DNA from: a virus
Lineage: Duplodnaviria > Heunggongvirae > Uroviricota > Caudoviricetes
DNA length: 7,677 nt
Virus record (IMG/VR): IMGVR_UViG_2681813234_000009
Location: 1 to 7,677 of that record
Direction: 5' to 3' (one strand)
Shown here: positions 1 through 7,677 of the stretch, piece after piece
How the letters are laid out: the number at the start of each line of letters is the position of its first letter
Numbering within the stretch: position 1 is the first letter of the stretch
Translations under genes and position numbers: made by a program
Notes under the pieces: generated by a model
What the model was told of the DNA's origin: nothing
The model's input: the letters and a program-made list of their open reading frames with translations, nothing else
The model's database searches: none

Positions 1-426
1 TCAATGTACTGCCACAGCATTTCCTGCCGGGCCACCACGGTTCATCTGATTGAAACCGGCGATTGCCACTGCGACAAAATCATCAGCGTCTCTCACCAGT
101 CGTTCCCGCGTCTCCACCAACTCCCGAAAATAGACTGAACTGTGGCTGCGCATCCGGGCCACCAGCAGAGGTGGCATTGCTTTTTCGATCGCTGGTAACA
201 ACGCCTGAATTTTTTCAACCGCATCAGTGGTGTCTTTCTCCACCCAGCGGAAAATTTTCTGGGTATTACGAGCCAGGGCTTCTGGATGGCTGTCGTCGTA
301 CAGTTCCGGGGACGTCATTCCCAGTTCGAAATAAGCCCTGGTTATCTTGGCCGCCGGAACTTTTTCACCATCCGGACGCGCCCAGGCATTCATAGCCATG
401 CGGATGTGTTCATGCTTGATTTTCAT
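1..426 (-). CDS. CII-like phage regulatory protein (YdaT / CP76-type), 141 aa
   Basis: Complete ORF on the minus strand; stop codon is revcomp of nt 1-3 (tca). Lies directly downstream of the Cro-like gene with an ATGA start/stop overlap, the classic cro-cII arrangement. The N-terminus MKIKHEHI matches my recollection of YdaT-type proteins; family assignment is from memory, not a search. Confidence 0.55.
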   Translation of the reverse strand: MKIKHEHIRMAMNAWARPDGEKVPAAKITRAYFELGMTSPELYDDSHPEALARNTQKIFRWVEKDTTDAVEKIQALLPAIEKAMPPLLVARMRSHSSVYFRELVETRERLVRDADDFVAVAIAGFNQMNRGGPAGNAVAVH

Positions 427-650
427 GAATCATTCTTTCCTTCGTTCAAGGTGTTATCCTTCTTTTTGTAAAGTTCTGGGTTCAAAGATAATTTTCCCTT
501 GGAGTATGCGGCAGCTTCCGCGGCCCTCCCCTTGGGAACTATTTCACCAGGACGTTTGCGCCACATGTATATAGCTTCACGGGTTATCCCATAAAAATCG
601 GCAACTCTCTGAACAGAGCCAAAAAACTGGACAAGTTCATCAACTCGCAT
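423..650 (-). CDS. Cro-like HTH transcriptional regulator (YdaS/DicC-type), 75 aa
   Basis: Small basic protein with an HTH-like segment (VADFYGITREAIYMWRK). Strong SD AGGAGG 5 nt upstream of the ATG on the minus strand (plus-strand 651-660 ttcaccctcc). Divergent from the CI-like repressor across an operator-rich intergenic region. Confidence 0.7.
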   Translation of the reverse strand: MRVDELVQFFGSVQRVADFYGITREAIYMWRKRPGEIVPKGRAAEAAAYSKGKLSLNPELYKKKDNTLNEGKNDS

Positions 651-742
651 TTCACCCTCCTAAAACTAAGTATTTTTAGATTAAAGGATAATTTTTTTTA
701 GGTCAATGCAATCTAAAATAATTTATATTCAATTCACGGGAG
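651..742. promoter_or_regulatory. Divergent promoter/operator region between cro-like and cI-like genes (OR analog)
   Basis: 92 bp AT-rich intergenic region between divergent regulators. Contains a 20 bp imperfect palindrome CTAAAACTAAGTATTTTTAG (660-679, 16/20 symmetric) and a second inverted pair TTTTAG(695-700)...CTAAAA(713-718). Individual -10/-35 elements were not confidently resolved. Confidence 0.55.
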
Positions 743-1393
743 ATGATGATGGAAAGCCTTGGCATTAGGCTTAAGAGACTCAGAAAAGACAAGGGACTGA
801 CCCAAGTCGAACTGGGCAAGCTTTCTGGCGTAACAGGGGTAACTATAGGGTACTGGGAGAAAGACCTAAACGAACCCGGTAGCAAAGCTCTTAGTAAATT
901 AGCCCAAGCACTAGGAACTACTGAGTCCTATCTCCTATATGGAGTATCGTCTACTGAACCTACCCTTGTGCAGAACAATTCAGGCACCCAAATCCCCTAT
1001 CTTTCATGGGGGGAAGCAATTTCTTTCCTAATTTTAGAAGGAGAGAAAACTATGGGAAATGCCGACAGAATCACCACATTCTTTGACGTCAAGGAGGGGG
1101 ATTTTGCCGTTTCAATGCCTGATGACACTATGCACAACCCATCAGGGTCGCCAAGCATTCCGGTTGGTGCCACAGTGATCATGAGGCCTAGAGAAAAATA
1201 TAAAAATGGTAGTATCGTCGCTGTAATAGTCCCAGATCCGCTTACAAACGAACCATCTATGACTATAAAAAAATTAGTCATCGACGGAAAACTCGTGTAT
1301 TTAAGCCCCCTCAATCCTCGCTATCAATCGTCCTTACTGACACCTGAATGTAAAATTGTTGCTGTAGCAAAAGGTGTGCAGTTCAGCCTATAG
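743..1393 (+). CDS. CI-like prophage repressor, N-terminal HTH (XRE-type) plus C-terminal S24 (LexA/CI-like) peptidase domain, 216 aa
   Basis: N-terminus LKRLRKDKGLTQVELGKLSGVTGVTIGYWE is a typical HTH. C-terminal region aligns by eye to the lambda CI/LexA C-terminal domain (AVSMPDD Ser motif, NGSIVAV, TIKKL Lys motif, LSPLNP). Three consecutive ATGs at 743/746/749; GGGAG at 738-742 gives best spacing for the third ATG (749). Confidence 0.85.
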   Translation: MMMESLGIRLKRLRKDKGLTQVELGKLSGVTGVTIGYWEKDLNEPGSKALSKLAQALGTTESYLLYGVSSTEPTLVQNNSGTQIPYLSWGEAISFLILEGEKTMGNADRITTFFDVKEGDFAVSMPDDTMHNPSGSPSIPVGATVIMRPREKYKNGSIVAVIVPDPLTNEPSMTIKKLVIDGKLVYLSPLNPRYQSSLLTPECKIVAVAKGVQFSL

Positions 1394-1416
1394 CTTCCAC
1401 TTTGTTTTTCAATCAG

Positions 1417-1441
1417 AGGTCGGCTTTGTCGACCTTTTTTA
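1417..1441 (+). terminator. Rho-independent terminator after the cI-like gene
   Basis: Stem AGGTCG(1417-1422) / CGACCT(1430-1435) with a 7-nt loop, followed by TTTTTT (1436-1441), 24 nt after the cI-like stop. Confidence 0.6.
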
Positions 1442-1463
1442 AATATATCTAGATCACACTTGA

Positions 1464-1493
1464 CTATAAAACTAAATAGATTTAGTTTTATAG
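1464..1493. promoter_or_regulatory. 30 bp palindromic operator-like site (possible OL analog) downstream of cI-like gene
   Basis: ctataaaactaaat-ag-atttagttttatag: two perfect 14 bp inverted arms around a 2 bp centre. Shares the 9-mer TAAAACTAA with the OR region (661-669). Preceded by TTGACT (1460-1465). Confidence 0.4.
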
Positions 1494-1669
1494 TATACCA
1501 CCCCACCCCGCCCCACAGAACGCAGGGCAATACTTCGAGTTACCAGGCAGTGGTCAGGGGTTAAGTAGCCAGCCCGAGGCGTAAGAACATGACGGCAGGG
1601 TTCAACTTTAATAACTATGCAGCAGGTTTTTGTTCCGCTACCCCGGCGTTAAGGGGACATGAGGTCAAC

Positions 1670-1822
1670 ATGGATACTATCGATCTTGGCAACAACGAAT
1701 CTCTGGTATACGGCGTGTTTCCCAACCAGGACGGCACATTCACCGCGATGACGTATACCAAAAGCAAAACGTTTAAAACCGAATCTGGCGCGCGTCGCTG
1801 GTTAGCCAGAAATACTGACTGA
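1670..1822 (+). CDS. ydfA: YdfA-like small prophage protein (DUF1391-type), 50 aa
   Basis: Internal ATG at 1670 with GAGG 5 nt upstream. Product MDTIDLGNNESLVYGVFPNQDGTFTAMTYTKSKTFKTESGARRWLARNTD matches my recollection of Qin-prophage YdfA. The longer track ORF from 1589 has no obvious RBS. Confidence 0.6.
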   Translation: MDTIDLGNNESLVYGVFPNQDGTFTAMTYTKSKTFKTESGARRWLARNTD

Positions 1823-1833
1823 TGAGGTTGACT

Positions 1834-2208
1834 ATGGAATTTAAAGATTTACCAATGCAATTCCAGGAAATGGCAGCGAATATAGTTCGTTCCCAACTGG
1901 CGACTCTTGACCTGAGTACCGTAGAAAAAGAAACCATAGATAATATATCCGGTAACGTGCGCCGTGCCTTTATCGGGTTGTACGAAGAGAAGCAGCACTC
2001 TGATAAGCATGATTCCTCTGAAAAATACTTCCTGGAATTAATGGATATCATTAACAAGGGGTTTGGTTTGTTGATGGAAAAGAAAGGGATTCGAATAGAA
2101 CCCCTTAAAAACCATTTTACTGAGTGCAACATTAATTCCTGTGATTTAAAGCATCCCACTTCAGATGGGAAAGTTGAAGCCAACTATAAAATATCAATTA
2201 ATCATTAA
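1834..2208 (+). CDS. Hypothetical protein, 124 aa (start chosen at MEFKDL with GAGG RBS)
   Basis: ORF track 1822-2208; ATG at 1834 is preceded by GAGG (1823-1826). Protein is charged and soluble-looking with no family I recognise. The 3' half is distinctly AT-rich. Confidence 0.5.
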   Translation: MEFKDLPMQFQEMAANIVRSQLATLDLSTVEKETIDNISGNVRRAFIGLYEEKQHSDKHDSSEKYFLELMDIINKGFGLLMEKKGIRIEPLKNHFTECNINSCDLKHPTSDGKVEANYKISINH

Positions 2209-2265
2209 GTTCTCCACGGGTAAGGTGGAGAACATGCGCCGGACACGGATAAATCTCCGGCATGC
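2209..2265. terminator. Putative bidirectional terminator between convergent genes
   Basis: Perfect 9 bp stem GTTCTCCAC(2209-2217) / GTGGAGAAC(2225-2233) with a 7-nt loop, directly after the plus-strand stop. A second imperfect hairpin CATGCGCCGG...CCGGCATG (2233-2265) is followed by CTCTTT. Sits between the plus-strand ORF end (2208) and the minus-strand gene end (2287). Confidence 0.4.
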
Positions 2266-2286
2266 TCTTTAACATTCTGGATATTC

Positions 2287-2733
2287 CTAACTACAAAGAA
2301 ATCGCATCAATTTAGATTTTGTGGGCAGCTTCTCTTGTTGTTCGATGGAAACGCCTATTTTGATCTGTGTTTTTAAGATCGCAATATCTTTAAGTGATGA
2401 CCAAATATGAACATCCGTTTTTTCCAGAATTTTTAACTGCATTTTCAATTCAGAATCAGAATATTTTTCTGCATCATCAAAAAGCTGCAAATATTCTGCG
2501 GATTTTCTCATGGCGTTACCTGACTTTTGTCCGAATCCATAAATCGTTTGGACGGTTGCGATCACAACAATAAAAACGCCAGAAATTTCCGGAATGAATC
2601 CGCCAATGACAGATGAACCGAGGATAATACTCACCACTGAGAGAAGTTTATCGAGACGACCAGTTGCTACCGAAAATAGTTGCTCAAGAAAATAGCCATA
2701 TAAAATTCTGTCAAGAATATCATCCCGGTCCAT
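2287..2733 (-). CDS. Small membrane protein with two predicted transmembrane helices, 148 aa; function unknown (candidate exclusion/abortive-infection effector)
   Basis: Minus-strand ORF with AGGTGA 6 nt upstream of the ATG. Two hydrophobic helices (LLSVVSIILGSSVIGGFI and GVFIVVIATVQTIYGF) separated by a short PEIS turn, then a roughly 80-aa charged helical C-terminus. Strongly AT-rich versus flanking phage genes and opposite in orientation to the surrounding operon. Confidence 0.65.
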   Translation of the reverse strand: MDRDDILDRILYGYFLEQLFSVATGRLDKLLSVVSIILGSSVIGGFIPEISGVFIVVIATVQTIYGFGQKSGNAMRKSAEYLQLFDDAEKYSDSELKMQLKILEKTDVHIWSSLKDIAILKTQIKIGVSIEQQEKLPTKSKLMRFLCS

Positions 2734-3194
2734 ACATCATCACCTGCTTGTTTGGTTGTTGCTGTTCCCCCTCTCCTCCGAAGGAGCTGGAGATGGTTTT
2801 GGTCGAATGTTTTTCTCTGGTATGTGATCCCAGACTGTTTTATGTGTCGAATTGCCACCACCTGCTTGTGCTCTTTGCTCTGTCATATGATTTCCTTGGA
2901 TCGTTGGGGATATCCAGATTATACAGATTTCTTGTCGTTGGGGAATGACAGGAACCACCTCGCCTGACGTGGTTAAAAGCAGGCACACAACACGAAAGCG
3001 CACGGCGAAGTCATTTCTCCCTCTGTTGCGTGTCGCCGGTATCTTCGACCGTGCGCTTCCGGTTGTGGCACTCCGCGAAATGGCGCGGCGGTAAGTATGG
3101 CGGGGTTATCCTTACCCCCACTGGTAGCACCGGGTTGTCAGGTTGACCATACGCCTGAGTGACAACCCCGCCACAACATCTCCATGTTGAGGCT

Positions 3195-3249
3195 TGTGTG
3201 AGACCTTTGGCGGCATCAGTTTAATTGCTGGCTGATGTCCGCCCTTTTT
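3195..3249 (+). ncRNA. dicF: DicF-like small RNA (3' end defined by intrinsic terminator); 5' end approximate
   Basis: Terminator stem GGCGGCATCAG(3209-3219) / CTGATG(T)CCGCC(3232-3243), 11 bp with one bulge, then CTTTTT (3244-3249). Positioned immediately upstream of dicB as in Qin. Sequence and architecture resemble my recollection of E. coli DicF, but the 5' part differs. Confidence 0.5.
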
Positions 3250-3253
3250 AAAG

Positions 3254-3413
3254 TGAATTTTGTGATGCGGTGAATGCGGCTAAGCGCACGCGGAACAGTT
3301 AAAAAGCGATTAGTTCCCCCGTATCGGGGGTTTATGGGTTTCCCTGTATCCGGCGTTAATTGTTAACTGGTTAACGTCACCTGGAGGCACCAGGCACCGC
3401 ATCACAAAATTCA
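3254..3413. repeat. 19 bp perfect inverted repeat pair flanking about 120 nt of the dicB leader
   Basis: tgaattttgtgatgcggtg (3254-3272) is the exact reverse complement of caccgcatcacaaaattca (3395-3413). Enclosed region holds the hairpin CCCCCgtatcGGGGG and GTTAAC-tg-GTTAAC. The right arm ends 17 nt before the dicB ATG. Confidence 0.7.
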
Positions 3414-3430
3414 TTGTTGAGGATGCGATA

Positions 3431-3613
3431 ATGGAAACGTTATTACCAAACGTCAATACGTCTGAAGGTTGTTTTGAAATTGGTGTCAGAATCAGTAACC
3501 CTGTATTTACTGAAGATGCCATTAACAAGAGAAAACACGAACGGGAGCTATTAAATCAAATATGCATTGTTTCAATGCTGGCCCGTTTACGCCTGATGCA
3601 AAAAGGACGCTGA
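3431..3613 (+). CDS. dicB: Cell division inhibitor DicB, 60 aa
   Basis: METLLPNVNTSEGCFEIGVRISNPVFTEDAINKRKHERELLNQICIVSMLARLRLMQKGR closely matches my recollection of E. coli Qin DicB. GAGGA RBS upstream. Preceded by the DicF-like element, the same order as in Qin. Confidence 0.9.
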   Translation: METLLPNVNTSEGCFEIGVRISNPVFTEDAINKRKHERELLNQICIVSMLARLRLMQKGR

Positions 3614-3615
3614 CA

Positions 3616-3819
3616 ATGAATACAGTATTTGCACTCGTTCTGACAGTTTTTCTTAATACAGGCGAGCCAGTCGATCTTGTTATTGGTATACATGACTCAA
3701 TGAAAGAATGCATGGCTGCCGCAGCGGAACAGAAAATTCCCGGCAACTGTTATCCGGTTGATAAAGTTATTCACATGGACAATAACGAAATCCCGGCAGG
3801 ACTTAAAACAGCACCGTAA
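3616..3819 (+). CDS. ydfD: YdfD-like small membrane/lysis protein, 67 aa
   Basis: ATG at 3616, 2 nt after the dicB stop. MNTVFALVLTVFLNTGEPVDLVIGIHDSMKECMAAAAEQKIPGNCYPVDKVIH... has a hydrophobic N-terminal helix and matches my recollection of Qin YdfD. The longer track ORF from 3562 overlaps dicB and is unlikely. Confidence 0.8.
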   Translation: MNTVFALVLTVFLNTGEPVDLVIGIHDSMKECMAAAAEQKIPGNCYPVDKVIHMDNNEIPAGLKTAP

Positions 3820-3899
3820 TTAATATCCGGTTTCATTTTTATATGCCAGCAATGGCAGGGATTTGTTCACCCTTAAATCTGTAATGAGGTTAAAACAAA

Positions 3900-6371
3900 A
3901 TGAGTAAAGTCTTTATTTGCGCCGCCATTCCGGACGAACAGGCAATAAAGGAAGAAGGTGCAGTCGCTGTAGCCACTGCCATTGAAGCCGGCGACGAACG
4001 CCGCGCCCGAGCCAAATTTACCTGGCAATTCCTGGAGCAATATCCGGCTGCTCAGGACTGCGCTTATAAATTTCTTGTTTGCGAGGATAAACCCGGCATG
4101 CCCCGCCCTGCCATCGACTCCTGGGATACCGAATATATGCAGGAAAACTGCTGGGATGAGGAATCCGCTTCCTTTATTCCGGTCGAACCAGAATCCGATC
4201 CGATGAACGTCAATTTTGACAAGCTGTCCCCTGAAGTACAGAACGCGGTCCTGGTTAAGTTCGACACATGTGAAAACATCACCGTTGATATGGTTATTAG
4301 CGCACAGGAATTGTTGCAGGAAGACATGGCAACATTCGACGGACATATCGTTGAAGCGTTGATGAAAATGCCAGAAGTTAACGCCATGTATCCGGAGCTT
4401 AAGTTGCACGCCATTGGGTGGGTTAAGCATAAATGTATTCCTGGTGCTAAATGGCCCGAAATTCAGGCAGAGATGCGCATCTGGAAAAAACGTCGCGAAG
4501 GTGAACGCAAGGAAACCGGAAAATACACGTCTGTTGTTGATCTCGCCCGCGCCAGAGCCAATCAACAGTACACTGACAATTCAACAGGAAAAATCAGCCC
4601 GGTCATTGCTGCCACTCATCGCGAATACAAGCAGACATGGAAAACACTGGATGACGAACTGGCCTACGCTCTCTGGCCTGGTGATGTGGATGCCGGAAAC
4701 ATTGACGGCAGCATCCATCGCTGGGCAAAAAATGAAGTTATCGACAACGACCGCGAAGACTGGAAGCGTATCTCGGCATCAATGCGCAAACAGCCTGATG
4801 CCCTTCGCTACGACCGACAGACTATTTTTGGCCTTGTCCGTGAACGTCCGATCGACATTCACAAAGACCCTGTGGCACTGAACAAATACATTACTGAATA
4901 CCTGACTACAAAGGGCGTGTTTGAAGATGAAGGAACAAATCAGAGCGCAACTGATACTCTCTCGTCGCCAGTACCAGAAACTGATGCAGTGGAAACGGCA
5001 ATTCCGGACAACGAAAAAACCGAATGCAAAGTTGAAGTCGAACCATCTGTAGAGCGTGAGGGGCCGTTCTACTTCCTCTTCACAGATAAGGATGGCGAAA
5101 AATATGGTCGCGCAAACAAACTTTCTGGTCTGAATAAGGCGCTGACTGCAGGGGCTACTGAAATCACGAAAGAAGAATATTTTGCCCGTAAAAACGGTAC
5201 ATACTCAGGTTCACAACAAAATACTGGTGCATCTGACACGACCGCACAACCAGAGCCGGTAAAAGTTACCGCTGACGAAGTAAACAAAATTATGCAGGCA
5301 GCCAATATCAGCCAGCCTGACGCCGATAAGTTGCTTGCTGTATCACGTGGTGAATTTGTTGCAGGGATTAGCGACCCGAATGATCCGAAATGGGTGAAGG
5401 GGATTGAAACCCGCGATTCAGTGAATCAGAACCAGCAAGAAACGGAACAGAACGACCAGAAAGCGGAACAAAACAGCCCAAATGCGTTACAAAACGAGCC
5501 AGAAACGAAACAACCTGAGCCAGTAGCGCAACAGGAAGCGGAAAAAGTCTGCACCGCCTGCGGTCAGACCGGCGGCGGCAACTGCCCTGATTGTGGTGCG
5601 GTGATGGGCGACGCAACATACCAAGAAACATTCGATGACAAGAACCAGGTTGAAGTTCAGGAAGACGATTCGGAGAAAATGGAAGGCGCTGAACATCCAC
5701 ACAAAGAGAATGCTGGCAGCGCTCAGGATCACGCCAGCGATAGTGAAACTGGCGAGACGGCAGATCCCTTAATTACGGTGAACGGTCATCACGTTATCAC
5801 ATCCACCAGCAGGACGTGTGACCATCTAATGATCGACCTTGAAACCATGGGAAAAAATCCTGATGCCCCGATTATCTCAATAGGTGCAATATTTTTCGAT
5901 CCGCAAACCGGAGATATGGGACCGGAATTTAGTAAGACTATCGATCTGGAAACTGCTGGCGGAGTCATTGATCGGGACACCATTAAATGGTGGCTTAAGC
6001 AATCACGCGAAGCGCAATCTGCCATTATGACCGATGAAATCCCGTTAGATGATGCACTGTTACAATTGCGGGAATTTATCGACGAAAACTCCGGTGAATT
6101 TTTTGTTCAGGTCTGGGGAAATGGAGCCAACTTCGACAACACGATTTTGCGCCGTTCATACGAACGGCAGGGGATCCCCTGCCCGTGGCGTTACTACAAC
6201 GATCGCGATGTACGCACAATCGTTGAGCTGGGGAAAGCCATAGACTTCGATGCCAGAACGGCTATTCCATTCGAAGGTGAGCGCCATAATGCACTTGATG
6301 ACGCCCGTTACCAGGCAAAATACGTTTCAGCAATCTGGCAAAAACTGATCCCGAATCCGGTTGATTTTTAA
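3900..6371 (+). CDS. ydfE: Large YdfE-like prophage protein, 823 aa: N-terminal YdfE-homologous region, low-complexity Q/E/N-rich linker, CxxC-x7-CxxC motif, C-terminal DEDDh-type 3'-5' exonuclease domain
   Basis: Uninterrupted 2.47 kb ORF with GAGG upstream. N-terminus MSKVFICAAIPDEQAIKEEGAVAVA... matches my recollection of K-12 YdfE. C-terminus carries DEDDh motifs: D646-x-E648 (MIDLETMG), N-FD (GNGANFDNT) and H796-x4-D801 (HNALDDARY). Cys551/554/562/565 form a CxxC-x7-CxxC motif. Confidence 0.85.
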   Translation: MSKVFICAAIPDEQAIKEEGAVAVATAIEAGDERRARAKFTWQFLEQYPAAQDCAYKFLVCEDKPGMPRPAIDSWDTEYMQENCWDEESASFIPVEPESDPMNVNFDKLSPEVQNAVLVKFDTCENITVDMVISAQELLQEDMATFDGHIVEALMKMPEVNAMYPELKLHAIGWVKHKCIPGAKWPEIQAEMRIWKKRREGERKETGKYTSVVDLARARANQQYTDNSTGKISPVIAATHREYKQTWKTLDDELAYALWPGDVDAGNIDGSIHRWAKNEVIDNDREDWKRISASMRKQPDALRYDRQTIFGLVRERPIDIHKDPVALNKYITEYLTTKGVFEDEGTNQSATDTLSSPVPETDAVETAIPDNEKTECKVEVEPSVEREGPFYFLFTDKDGEKYGRANKLSGLNKALTAGATEITKEEYFARKNGTYSGSQQNTGASDTTAQPEPVKVTADEVNKIMQAANISQPDADKLLAVSRGEFVAGISDPNDPKWVKGIETRDSVNQNQQETEQNDQKAEQNSPNALQNEPETKQPEPVAQQEAEKVCTACGQTGGGNCPDCGAVMGDATYQETFDDKNQVEVQEDDSEKMEGAEHPHKENAGSAQDHASDSETGETADPLITVNGHHVITSTSRTCDHLMIDLETMGKNPDAPIISIGAIFFDPQTGDMGPEFSKTIDLETAGGVIDRDTIKWWLKQSREAQSAIMTDEIPLDDALLQLREFIDENSGEFFVQVWGNGANFDNTILRRSYERQGIPCPWRYYNDRDVRTIVELGKAIDFDARTAIPFEGERHNALDDARYQAKYVSAIWQKLIPNPVDF

Positions 6372-6437
6372 TGTTCAACCCTGATCGCCGTCCCCGAATT
6401 ATATTGGCGGCGGTCATGCTGTAAGGCACGTGACCAC

Positions 6438-6689
6438 ATGTACGAATTAACTCTATCGCCAGCAGAGATTCAAGAGATCACGAAATACGAGCGATACACA
6501 AAACAGCAACACCAGTTAAGGCTGCACGGTATCCCATTTGTAATCGGTCCTAAAAACGAACCAATAGTTCTTCGCAGGGATATTCCACACGGACTGACTA
6601 CGATGCCAAAAGCACCTGAACTGGTTTCCGCTGAACCCGATTTTGAGGCGCTGAACAATGGGAAGACCAAGAAAAAACAAAAAAGATAA
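6438..6689 (+). CDS. xis: Putative excisionase (Xis-like), 83 aa
   Basis: Small ORF immediately upstream of int, overlapping it by 32 nt as lambda xis overlaps int. N-terminus MYELTL resembles lambda Xis MYLTL; basic C-terminal tail NNGKTKKKQKR resembles the lambda Xis tail. Weak RBS. Confidence 0.55.
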   Translation: MYELTLSPAEIQEITKYERYTKQQHQLRLHGIPFVIGPKNEPIVLRRDIPHGLTTMPKAPELVSAEPDFEALNNGKTKKKQKR

Positions 6690-7677
6690 TGCACTACCAC
6701 CGCGTGTTAGATCGAATGGTTACAGTTACGTATGGAAACCCGAAGGAAGCACAAGAACTATAGGGCTCGGAAGAGTGCGGGAAACCAGCGTAGCTAAAGT
6801 CTGGCAAAATTATGAGCTGGAAAAAGCAAAACTCCACAACATAATGACAGTAGCTAAATTATGGCACATGTTTATGGACTCCCCTGCATTTACAGAACTG
6901 GCCCCCCGAACCCAAAAAGATTATCGGCAACATCAAAGGGCATTGTTGGCAGTATTCGGAAAAGTGCTTGCTGATAATGTAAAAATTGAACAGGTAAGAA
7001 TTTTCATGGATAAGCGAGGACTTGAGAGCAAGACCCAGGCAAACCATGAACTGGCAAGTCTGAGCCGTGTATACGGATGGGGATATGAGCGTGGGTATGT
7101 GAAAAATAATCCATGCAAAGGAGTCAGAAAATTCACACTTAAAGCCCGTACTGTTTACATCACCGATGAACAGTATGCTGCAATATATGCGGAAGCAATT
7201 CCACAGTTACGTATTGCAATGGAGATATCCTATCTTTGTGCGGCAAGGCTCGGTGATGTACTCGAGCTGAAATGGCAGGATATTATGGAGAAAGGGATTT
7301 ACATTGAGCAAAACAAGACCGGCACTAAACAAATCAAGGAATGGTCTCCGCGATTACGTACGGCGATCCAGTTAGCCCGAAATGTATCTTCCGGCACATG
7401 CGAGTATGTGATCAACACAACCAAAGGCGGGAAGGTAATAGCCAAGACGCTGAACAACTGGTGGAATCAGGCTAAACGTGCAGCCGAGCAAAAAGCCGGC
7501 GTTCCGTTTGGGTGCAACTTCCATGACATAAAAGCCAAAGGGATTTCAGATTACGAAGGCAGCAGTCGCGACAAACAAATTTTCAGTGGACACAAAACAG
7601 AAAATCAGGTGTTGATTTACGATCGTAAAACCAAAATAACACCAACACTGGATTTGCCGCTTGTGGTCAGTAAGTAG
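6658..7677 (+). CDS. int: Lambda-family tyrosine integrase, 339 aa, apparently intact
   Basis: N-terminus MGRPRKNKKDNALPPRVRSNGYSYVWKPEGSTRTIGLGR parallels the lambda Int arm-binding N-terminus as I recall it (MGRRRSHERRDLPPNLYIRNNGYYCYRDPRTGKEFGLGRD). Catalytic-region motifs AARLGD (Arg), FHDIKAKG, SGHKTENQVLIYD (His...Tyr). Stop TAG at 7675-7677 is the last triplet of the window. Confidence 0.9.
   Translation: MGRPRKNKKDNALPPRVRSNGYSYVWKPEGSTRTIGLGRVRETSVAKVWQNYELEKAKLHNIMTVAKLWHMFMDSPAFTELAPRTQKDYRQHQRALLAVFGKVLADNVKIEQVRIFMDKRGLESKTQANHELASLSRVYGWGYERGYVKNNPCKGVRKFTLKARTVYITDEQYAAIYAEAIPQLRIAMEISYLCAARLGDVLELKWQDIMEKGIYIEQNKTGTKQIKEWSPRLRTAIQLARNVSSGTCEYVINTTKGGKVIAKTLNNWWNQAKRAAEQKAGVPFGCNFHDIKAKGISDYEGSSRDKQIFSGHKTENQVLIYDRKTKITPTLDLPLVVSK

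Follow-up and report, generated by a model that had tools for sequence, protein, structure and literature searches.

Self-cleavage by S24 autopeptidases is defined by three determinants (PMC8565304; PMC9926225), i.e., a scissile Ala-Gly or Cys-Gly bond, a nucleophilic serine, and a general-base lysine, and replacement of the serine in LexA (S119A) completely abolishes self-cleavage (PMC4980697). In the structure of RecA with lambda CI solved by cryo-EM, a hydrophobic pocket comprising F106, F121, F141, L143, and F189 and an acidic patch at D187/E188 were described on the repressor (PMC9926225). Non-cleavable repressors of lambdoid prophages of Salmonella and E. coli have also been described, including Gifsy GfoR/GtgR, DicA, and RacR (PMC3121763; PMC10448788), which are approximately 135–160 amino acids (aa) in length and lack a C-terminal domain; RacR has been grouped with the small Gifsy-type repressors that are predicted to be non-self-cleaving (PMC3121763). 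Known non-cleavable repressors are inactivated by antirepressors, such as Gifsy GfoA/GfhA, N15 AntC, and 186 Tum, which are usually LexA-controlled (PMC3121763), and DicA is antagonized by Rem, the control of which is unknown (PMC10448788). The closest conceptual precedent for the repressor described herein is CB (gene 38) of N15, which was reported to be non-proteolytic (PMC10432266). N15 CB comprises an HTH_3 domain and a Peptidase_S24-like domain that is still detectable by Pfam, and its gene is accompanied by operators on both flanks and a divergent cro gene, although all three determinants are lost, with Thr-Gly at the site, Gln in place of Ser, and Gln in place of Lys. According to the work cited in PMC3121763, induction of N15 requires AntC, an antirepressor under LexA control.

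The locus analyzed here lies in a stretch of 7,677 nucleotides (positions 1 to 7,677 of IMG/VR record IMGVR_UViG_2681813234_000009, Caudoviricetes), hereafter referred to as the window, which belongs to a lambdoid prophage and holds its immunity and early-left region. Its immunity repressor gene of the CI/C2 type (743..1393, + strand; 216 aa from the first ATG in the ORF list) matches PHROG 4 "transcriptional repressor" and encodes two Pfam domains, HTH_3 at residues 10–64 (770..934, +; E 2e-12) and Peptidase_S24 (PF00717) at residues 113–208 (1079..1366, +; E 1e-10, 41.8 bits against a cut-off of 23.3), bearing out the original prediction of a CI-like repressor with an S24-like domain. The ORF opens with three tandem ATG codons (743–751). 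A GGGAG sequence at 738–742 has the best spacing to the third of these (749), the RefSeq protein WP_000444616, annotated "LexA family protein," begins at the same codon, and every homologue in the alignment begins with MES, MET, or MD, matching the third ATG. The true start is probably at 749, which gives a protein of 214 rather than 216 aa; residue numbers herein count from the first ATG, and a start at 749 lowers each of them by 2.

The N-terminal domain is matched by the P22 C2 N-domain (phmmer, E 1.6e-7) and superposes on the P22 c2 DNA-binding domain with a TM score of 0.93–0.95 and an rmsd of 0.8 Å (Foldseek); DicA is its top NCBIfam match, at a score under the cut-off of that model. The AlphaFold2 (AF2) model of the repressor has a mean pLDDT of 86, with disorder confined to the linker at residues 71–79, and its C-terminal domain superposes on the lambda C-terminal domain 1f39 with a TM score of 0.87 and an rmsd of 1.7 Å. 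The Pfam match and the superposition both place the S24 β-fold of the self-cleaving autopeptidases in this protein. Among the Foldseek matches, 1jhf is the crystallized G85D mutant form of LexA.

A divergent Cro-like gene (423..650, −; Pfam P22_Cro, E 1.2e-9; PHROG transcription regulator) is followed downstream by a CII-like gene of the YdaT family (1..426, −; Pfam YdaT_toxin; PHROG 163 "CII-like transcriptional activator," E 5e-45). Repeats and a pattern search revealed candidate operator regions on both sides of the repressor gene. The candidate for the right operator (666..726) lies between cro and the repressor gene and contains two 14-bp sites (666–679 and 713–726), each differing from CTAAATNNATTTAG by 2 mismatches, along with a weaker one at 688–701. 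The candidate for the left operator (1439..1494) lies downstream of the repressor gene and contains the perfect palindrome CTAAATAGATTTAG at 1472–1485, within a 15+15 inverted repeat at 1463–1494, and a second site at 1439–1452. Within the window, the operator-like 14-bp palindrome CTAAAT-NN-ATTTAG is found solely on these two flanks, with 4 matches to the pattern against 0.39 expected, a comparison that is partly circular because the pattern was built from the same sites. A candidate intrinsic terminator (1417..1440, +), consisting of AGGTCG, a loop, CGACCT, and a T run, was recognized by eye and is absent from the consensus-scan output, and an Rfam scan of the window returned no matches. The N-terminal HTH domain, the divergent cro gene, the operator-like palindromes on both sides, and the prophage context are together those of a lambdoid immunity repressor. 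Neither the ORF list nor Pfam revealed a peptidase gene beside the repressor gene, and the idea of an ImmA-type protease partner was rejected on this ground.

The determinants of self-cleavage were located in four alignments (HMMER to the lambda repressor crystal sequence 3bdn and MAFFT A1, A2, and A3), for which the sequences of lambda CI, P22-type c2, 434 cI, and E. coli LexA were taken from database records. The original prediction had noted that the protein contains no AG or CG dipeptide, and indeed none is present in the whole repressor; approximately 0.88 AG is expected from its composition and the probability of finding none is roughly 0.4, such that the absence is by itself statistically unremarkable and the aligned position is what counts. 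The four independent alignments agree in placing the lambda A111-G112 scissile bond on Ala92-Ile93 (codons read from the sequence at 1016–1021, +), within a cleavage-site remnant at residues 84–95 (IPYLSWGEAISF; 992..1027, +). Lambda P104-V-F-S-H-V-Q-A111-G112 aligns with P85-Y-L-S-W-G-E-A92-I93 of the repressor, in agreement with the earlier matching by eye of SWGEAIS to the lambda cleavage region. The P1′ Gly is replaced by Ile and the conserved P3 Val by Gly, and the scissile Ala-Gly or Cys-Gly of S24 autopeptidases is missing. The nucleophilic Ser is missing as well: the column of lambda S149 and LexA S119 holds Thr129 (codon ACT, 1127..1129, +) in the motif DDTM, which is invariant in the subfamily, whereas the canonical motif is G-[DNM]-S-M, reading GDSM or GNSM in LexA, lambda CI, P22-type c2, and 434 cI. 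The serine that had been taken for the catalytic one, in AVSMPDD, is Ser124 (1112..1114, +), which aligns with lambda E144, five residues before the nucleophile column, in the strand equivalent to lambda F141-W-L-E-V145. By contrast, the general-base lysine is retained as Lys176 (1268..1270, +), aligning with lambda K192 and LexA K156 in the TIKKL motif that had been singled out for this role.

Two of the three S24 self-cleavage determinants, the cut site and the Ser, are consequently missing from the repressor, and the Lys is present. The comparison with lambda CI, P22-type c2, and LexA that had been put forward as a check located the cleavage-site position, although it moved the proposed Ser motif out of register. 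The suggestion that the repressor is probably not RecA-cleavable agrees with these alignments, in which Ile stands at P1′, Gly at P3, and Thr at the nucleophile position, and the loss of the site and of the Ser is fixed across a subfamily with a canonical sister clade; since the Ser is found already replaced by Thr, the case for a non-cleavable repressor is stronger than was realized at the time. A search of the literature turned up no work on Ser-to-Thr mutants of S24 proteins.

Lambda CI, P22 C2, and 434 cI share with the repressor the two-domain architecture, the predicted fold, the genetic layout (divergent cro, cII-like gene, and operators), the conserved Lys, and the C-terminal "KKL...PLNP.Y" motif, whereas the repressor differs from them in lacking Ala-Gly and the catalytic Ser and in its altered P3 position, at 24–30% identity. 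Furthermore, its RecA contact surface differs from that of lambda CI. Lambda F106, F141, L143, and F189 align with the hydrophobic residues L87, F121, V123, and M173, and F121 aligns with K102; D187/E188 align with P171/S172, such that the acidic RecA-contact patch is not conserved, and a subfamily-specific loop insertion with basic residues in some members lies beside P171/S172 in the alignment. These differences offer weak additional evidence, at the level of aligned residues, that the RecA interface may no longer be maintained. In comparison with N15 CB, the repressor is less degenerate, with Ala-Ile at the site, Thr in place of Ser, and the Lys kept, i.e., with two of the three determinants lost in an S24-like domain that remains detectable; the two proteins share approximately 20% identity and the BLASTP comparison is not significant. 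The repressor does not have the single HTH domain and the length of approximately 135–160 aa of the Gifsy/DicA/RacR type, as it comprises 214–216 aa with a full S24-like domain, and it resembles DicA in the N-terminal domain only.

Selection on the gene was assessed by dN/dS, for which the allele in the window was compared with that of ON470580 (87% identity), at a dS of approximately 0.5–0.7. The dN/dS ratio is 0.015 in the N-terminal domain and 0.05 in the C-terminal core, and it amounts to 0.24 in the linker together with the former cleavage region; constraint is weakest in this former cleavage region and tight in the C-terminal core. The S24-like domain is functional as a domain and is not decaying. 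A constrained core beside a relaxed former site fits a domain that is kept for dimerization and cooperativity rather than for catalysis, and the domain is predicted to be catalytically dead.

The same changes extend to the relatives of the repressor. A large-database search yielded 29 relatives that fall cleanly into a degenerate and a canonical group. The degenerate group shows 51–92% identity and includes named members from E. coli, Salmonella, Symbiopectobacterium, Yersinia, and Arsenophonus; each of its clusters (12/12) has DDTM, lacks AG at the site, and keeps KK. The site in this group reads A or S followed by I, M, T, V, or K in P1′, and across the subfamily Gly, Asp, or Glu takes the place of Val in P3. 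The canonical sister clade, "LexA family proteins" of Morganella, Serratia, and Pectobacterium (P0015–P0027) with 40–45% full-length identity to the repressor and the same length and architecture, keeps VQAG, GDSM, and KK, whereas the repressor has neither VQAG nor GDSM; the members of this clade are predicted to be cleavable. In the alignment, a Xenorhabdus protein (P0014) has lost AG and kept the Ser, and a quick neighbour-joining tree without support values places it as sister to the DDTM clade, with the canonical clade outside. This position suggests that the cut site may have been lost first and that the change from Ser to Thr followed. No characterized member of the subfamily was found in a literature search that included the two phage records.

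The comparison was extended to 117 relatives of two-domain size by searching 1.8 billion cluster representatives exhaustively with HMMER. AG or CG together with Ser, the canonical combination, is present in 56 of them; 27 lack AG and keep Ser, 17 lack AG and have Thr at the nucleophile position, and 11 lack AG and have Ala, Val, Phe, Gly, or Ile there (two of them poorly aligned), whereas AG is kept and Ser lost in a single protein. Ser-less relatives thus also lack AG in 28 of 29 cases. The general-base Lys is kept in nearly all degenerate relatives, three of which have Arg, and the 5 of 117 relatives with neither Lys nor Arg in this column are mostly not aligned across the domain. Lys is also kept where the nucleophile position holds Ala, Val, Phe, Gly, or Ile, and its retention, as judged from these alignments, therefore says nothing about activity. 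In a sample of the nearest relatives, approximately half of the clusters at 50% identity lack the cut site or the serine, and degenerate S24 domains are common among CI-like repressors. Many of the top HMMER matches (P0030, P0032, P0033, P0035, and others) are proteins of 700–3100 aa with 5–16 tandem HTH copies.

E. coli EC42405 carries a locus that matches the repressor region at 100% identity, with the repressor gene annotated as WP_000444616. This locus belongs to a 47-kb prophage located between tRNA-Ser and yccA that is apparently intact, its modules for head, tail, lysis, Q, and replication all being complete. The host element is a lambdoid prophage with a Rac/Qin-type backbone, situated beside yccA in E. 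coli. At a DNA identity of at least 80%, 474 of 5426 complete E. coli genomes (approximately 9%), STEC lineages among them, carry the repressor. It occurs in just 2 of 50,697 phage records, one of which, ON470580, was examined and carries host flanking DNA. Strain TK3896 carries a prophage that is otherwise 99.5% identical at the same yccA site, with ydaS-racR replacing the cro-repressor pair; the same phage backbone hence also carries a repressor without any peptidase domain. Both the scarcity in isolated phages and the RacR swap are circumstantial evidence that fits a repressor without a direct response to SOS. The exchange is a clean swap of immunity modules, with a short in place of a two-domain repressor, between window 430–1560 and TK3896 locus L016 3438–4334. 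In Yersinia enterocolitica (L013 and L014, approximately 17500–20600), a prophage with a related degenerate repressor ends at most approximately 2 kb from the host lexA-dgkA-plsB locus.

The best reading of these data, which we regard as probable from the alignments, the model, and the pattern of selection, is that the C-terminal domain would be a non-proteolytic pseudo-peptidase domain kept for oligomerization, with no RecA-driven self-cleavage. In the proposed mechanism, the N-terminal P22-C2/DicA-like HTH domain would bind the 14-bp palindromic operators flanking the repressor gene, and the LexA/lambda-CI S24 fold would have turned into a pseudo-peptidase through the changes of Ala-Gly to Ala-Ile, P3 Val to Gly, and Ser to Thr, held by strong purifying selection presumably for dimerization and cooperative operator binding. 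Activated RecA would then be unable to inactivate the repressor by self-cleavage, and the prophage would not be directly SOS-inducible via its repressor. The weak side of this model lies in the hydroxyl of Thr, the retained Lys176, and the invariant DDTM, on account of which residual or altered catalysis may persist. These same features, including the invariance of K176/K177 across the subfamily, speak for a domain that is still an autopeptidase, in which a Thr129-Lys176 dyad would cut Ala92-Ile93 or a different non-canonical bond, whether stimulated by RecA or not, as do the strong purifying selection on the C-terminal domain and the match of lambda CI F106, F141, L143, and F189 with hydrophobic residues. 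However, such an activity is very unlikely in view of the bulky Ile, Met, Thr, Val, Lys, or Leu in place of the P1′ Gly and the Gly, Asp, or Glu in place of the P3 Val across the subfamily, the equal retention of Lys in proteins with no hydroxyl nucleophile at the aligned position, and the loss of the acidic RecA-contact patch; moreover, no alternative X-Gly bond is conserved within the cleavage-site region, and the near-complete coincidence of Ser loss with AG loss is as expected for the joint decay of a lost function. The 933W repressor uses a Leu-Gly cleavage site. Leu-Gly as an alternative cut site is rejected here, as all three LG dipeptides lie within the HTH domain. A gene decaying in a cryptic prophage, with substitutions that represent functionless degradation, would recall the many defective lambdoid prophages of E. 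coli and the Sakai prophages whose repressors have no peptidase motif and which are not mitomycin-inducible (PMC2669165); yet this explanation is highly improbable, having been largely refuted by the dN/dS of 0.015–0.05 in both domains at high dS, and the ORF is intact across five genera, the fold is confidently predicted, the candidate operators flank the gene on both sides, and the EC42405 prophage is complete.

In the absence of self-cleavage, derepression would have to take another route, most likely an antirepressor supplied by another part of the cell, or else switching that is independent of SOS or rare and spontaneous. Indirect SOS induction through a LexA-controlled antirepressor encoded in the same prophage, in the style of Gifsy, N15, or 186, is the known solution for non-cleavable repressors (PMC3121763; for DicA/Rem, PMC10448788), and it is favored by the DicA-like N-terminal domain of the repressor and by a Rha/ANT-domain gene situated approximately 5 kb from the repressor gene in the Yersinia relatives. 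Nevertheless, the Yersinia gene lies within the repressed early-right operon, and no Rha/ANT-domain gene is present within 10 kb in the locus of the Salmonella relative. Whereas gene 30 of the N15 genome is annotated as anti-repressor Ant, neither the EC42405 prophage nor ON470580 has an annotated antirepressor gene or a gene of the ANT, Rha, or KilAC type, and ten unannotated ORFs of the EC42405 prophage match no PHROG antirepressor family; Pfam and PADLOC scans of unannotated prophage ORFs likewise gave no antirepressor. An ORF at the position equivalent to that of Rem, beside DUF968, was rejected as Rem because it has no similarity to K-12 Rem. LexA boxes were sought as CTG-N10-CAG scored against TACTGTATATATATACAGTA in the window, the whole EC42405 prophage, and ON470580, and the scan recovered the host sulA and lexA boxes as controls, sulA at 17/20. 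No box with 3 or fewer mismatches is present in the window, and no promoter-placed box in the EC42405 prophage or ON470580; the sole good LexA-like box, TACTGTAAAAATATCCAGTT (16/20; L002 7964–7983, coding strand), overlaps the opening codons of a DNA methyltransferase gene that lies in the late region, downstream of Q. Such an antirepressor in cis is accordingly unlikely, although small antirepressors are hard to recognize by homology and their absence in the scan is not proof; a trans-acting or novel small antirepressor may exist. The box in the methyltransferase gene may be due to chance or may represent an SOS input into the late region.

A non-proteolytic pseudo-S24 domain would make this repressor, as the best reading of its sequence, a widespread and hitherto uncharacterized case of an already known kind of CI-type repressor. 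Annotation pipelines name it "LexA family protein," and induction predictions often take repressors with an HTH and an S24 domain as SOS-cleavable, whereas this one is most likely not. The response of the prophage to DNA-damaging antibiotics would hinge on a route other than repressor self-cleavage. As a practical lesson, the three catalytic positions are to be checked by alignment and not by "SM" and "KK" motifs. It is further conceivable, although quite unlikely, that Thr129-Lys176 works as a dyad with a non-canonical bond or some other protein as its target, or that the dead cleft is a docking site for an inducer. If true, such a Thr-Lys dyad would give the LexA/signal-peptidase clan its first Thr nucleophile, and a protein or signal docked in the cleft would control prophages in approximately 9% of E. 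coli strains independently of SOS.

Rightward of the repressor gene, the window continues with a DUF1391/YdfA-like gene, a DicB homologue, and a DUF1482 gene, and further with an 823-aa exonuclease, an excisionase-like gene, and a tyrosine integrase. A 148-aa ORF (2287–2733, −) stands in opposite orientation in the early-left operon and has two hydrophobic stretches by eye; its sole match is PHROG 6315 (unknown function), with none in Pfam, NCBIfam, or PADLOC, and it is moron-like. TK3896 also has this ORF, and no such gene is annotated at the equivalent place in EC42405. The DicB homologue is located at 3431–3613 (region 2740–3613), and the non-coding stretch of approximately 700 nt upstream of it contains no DicF sRNA according to Rfam, unlike the dicF-dicB arrangement of K-12 Qin. 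The 823-aa protein annotated as an exonuclease (3900–6371, +) has no Pfam match in its first approximately 640 residues, and its C-terminal 170 residues correspond to an Rv2179c-like 3′-5′ exoribonuclease. Elsewhere in the EC42405 prophage (L002 13862–16367, −), two adjacent large ORFs (332 and 500 aa) that sit between the replication genes and hokD jointly match a single 833-aa PHROG 14719 (unknown function) and have faint restriction-enzyme-like PADLOC matches, and this pair may represent a split or two-part defence gene.
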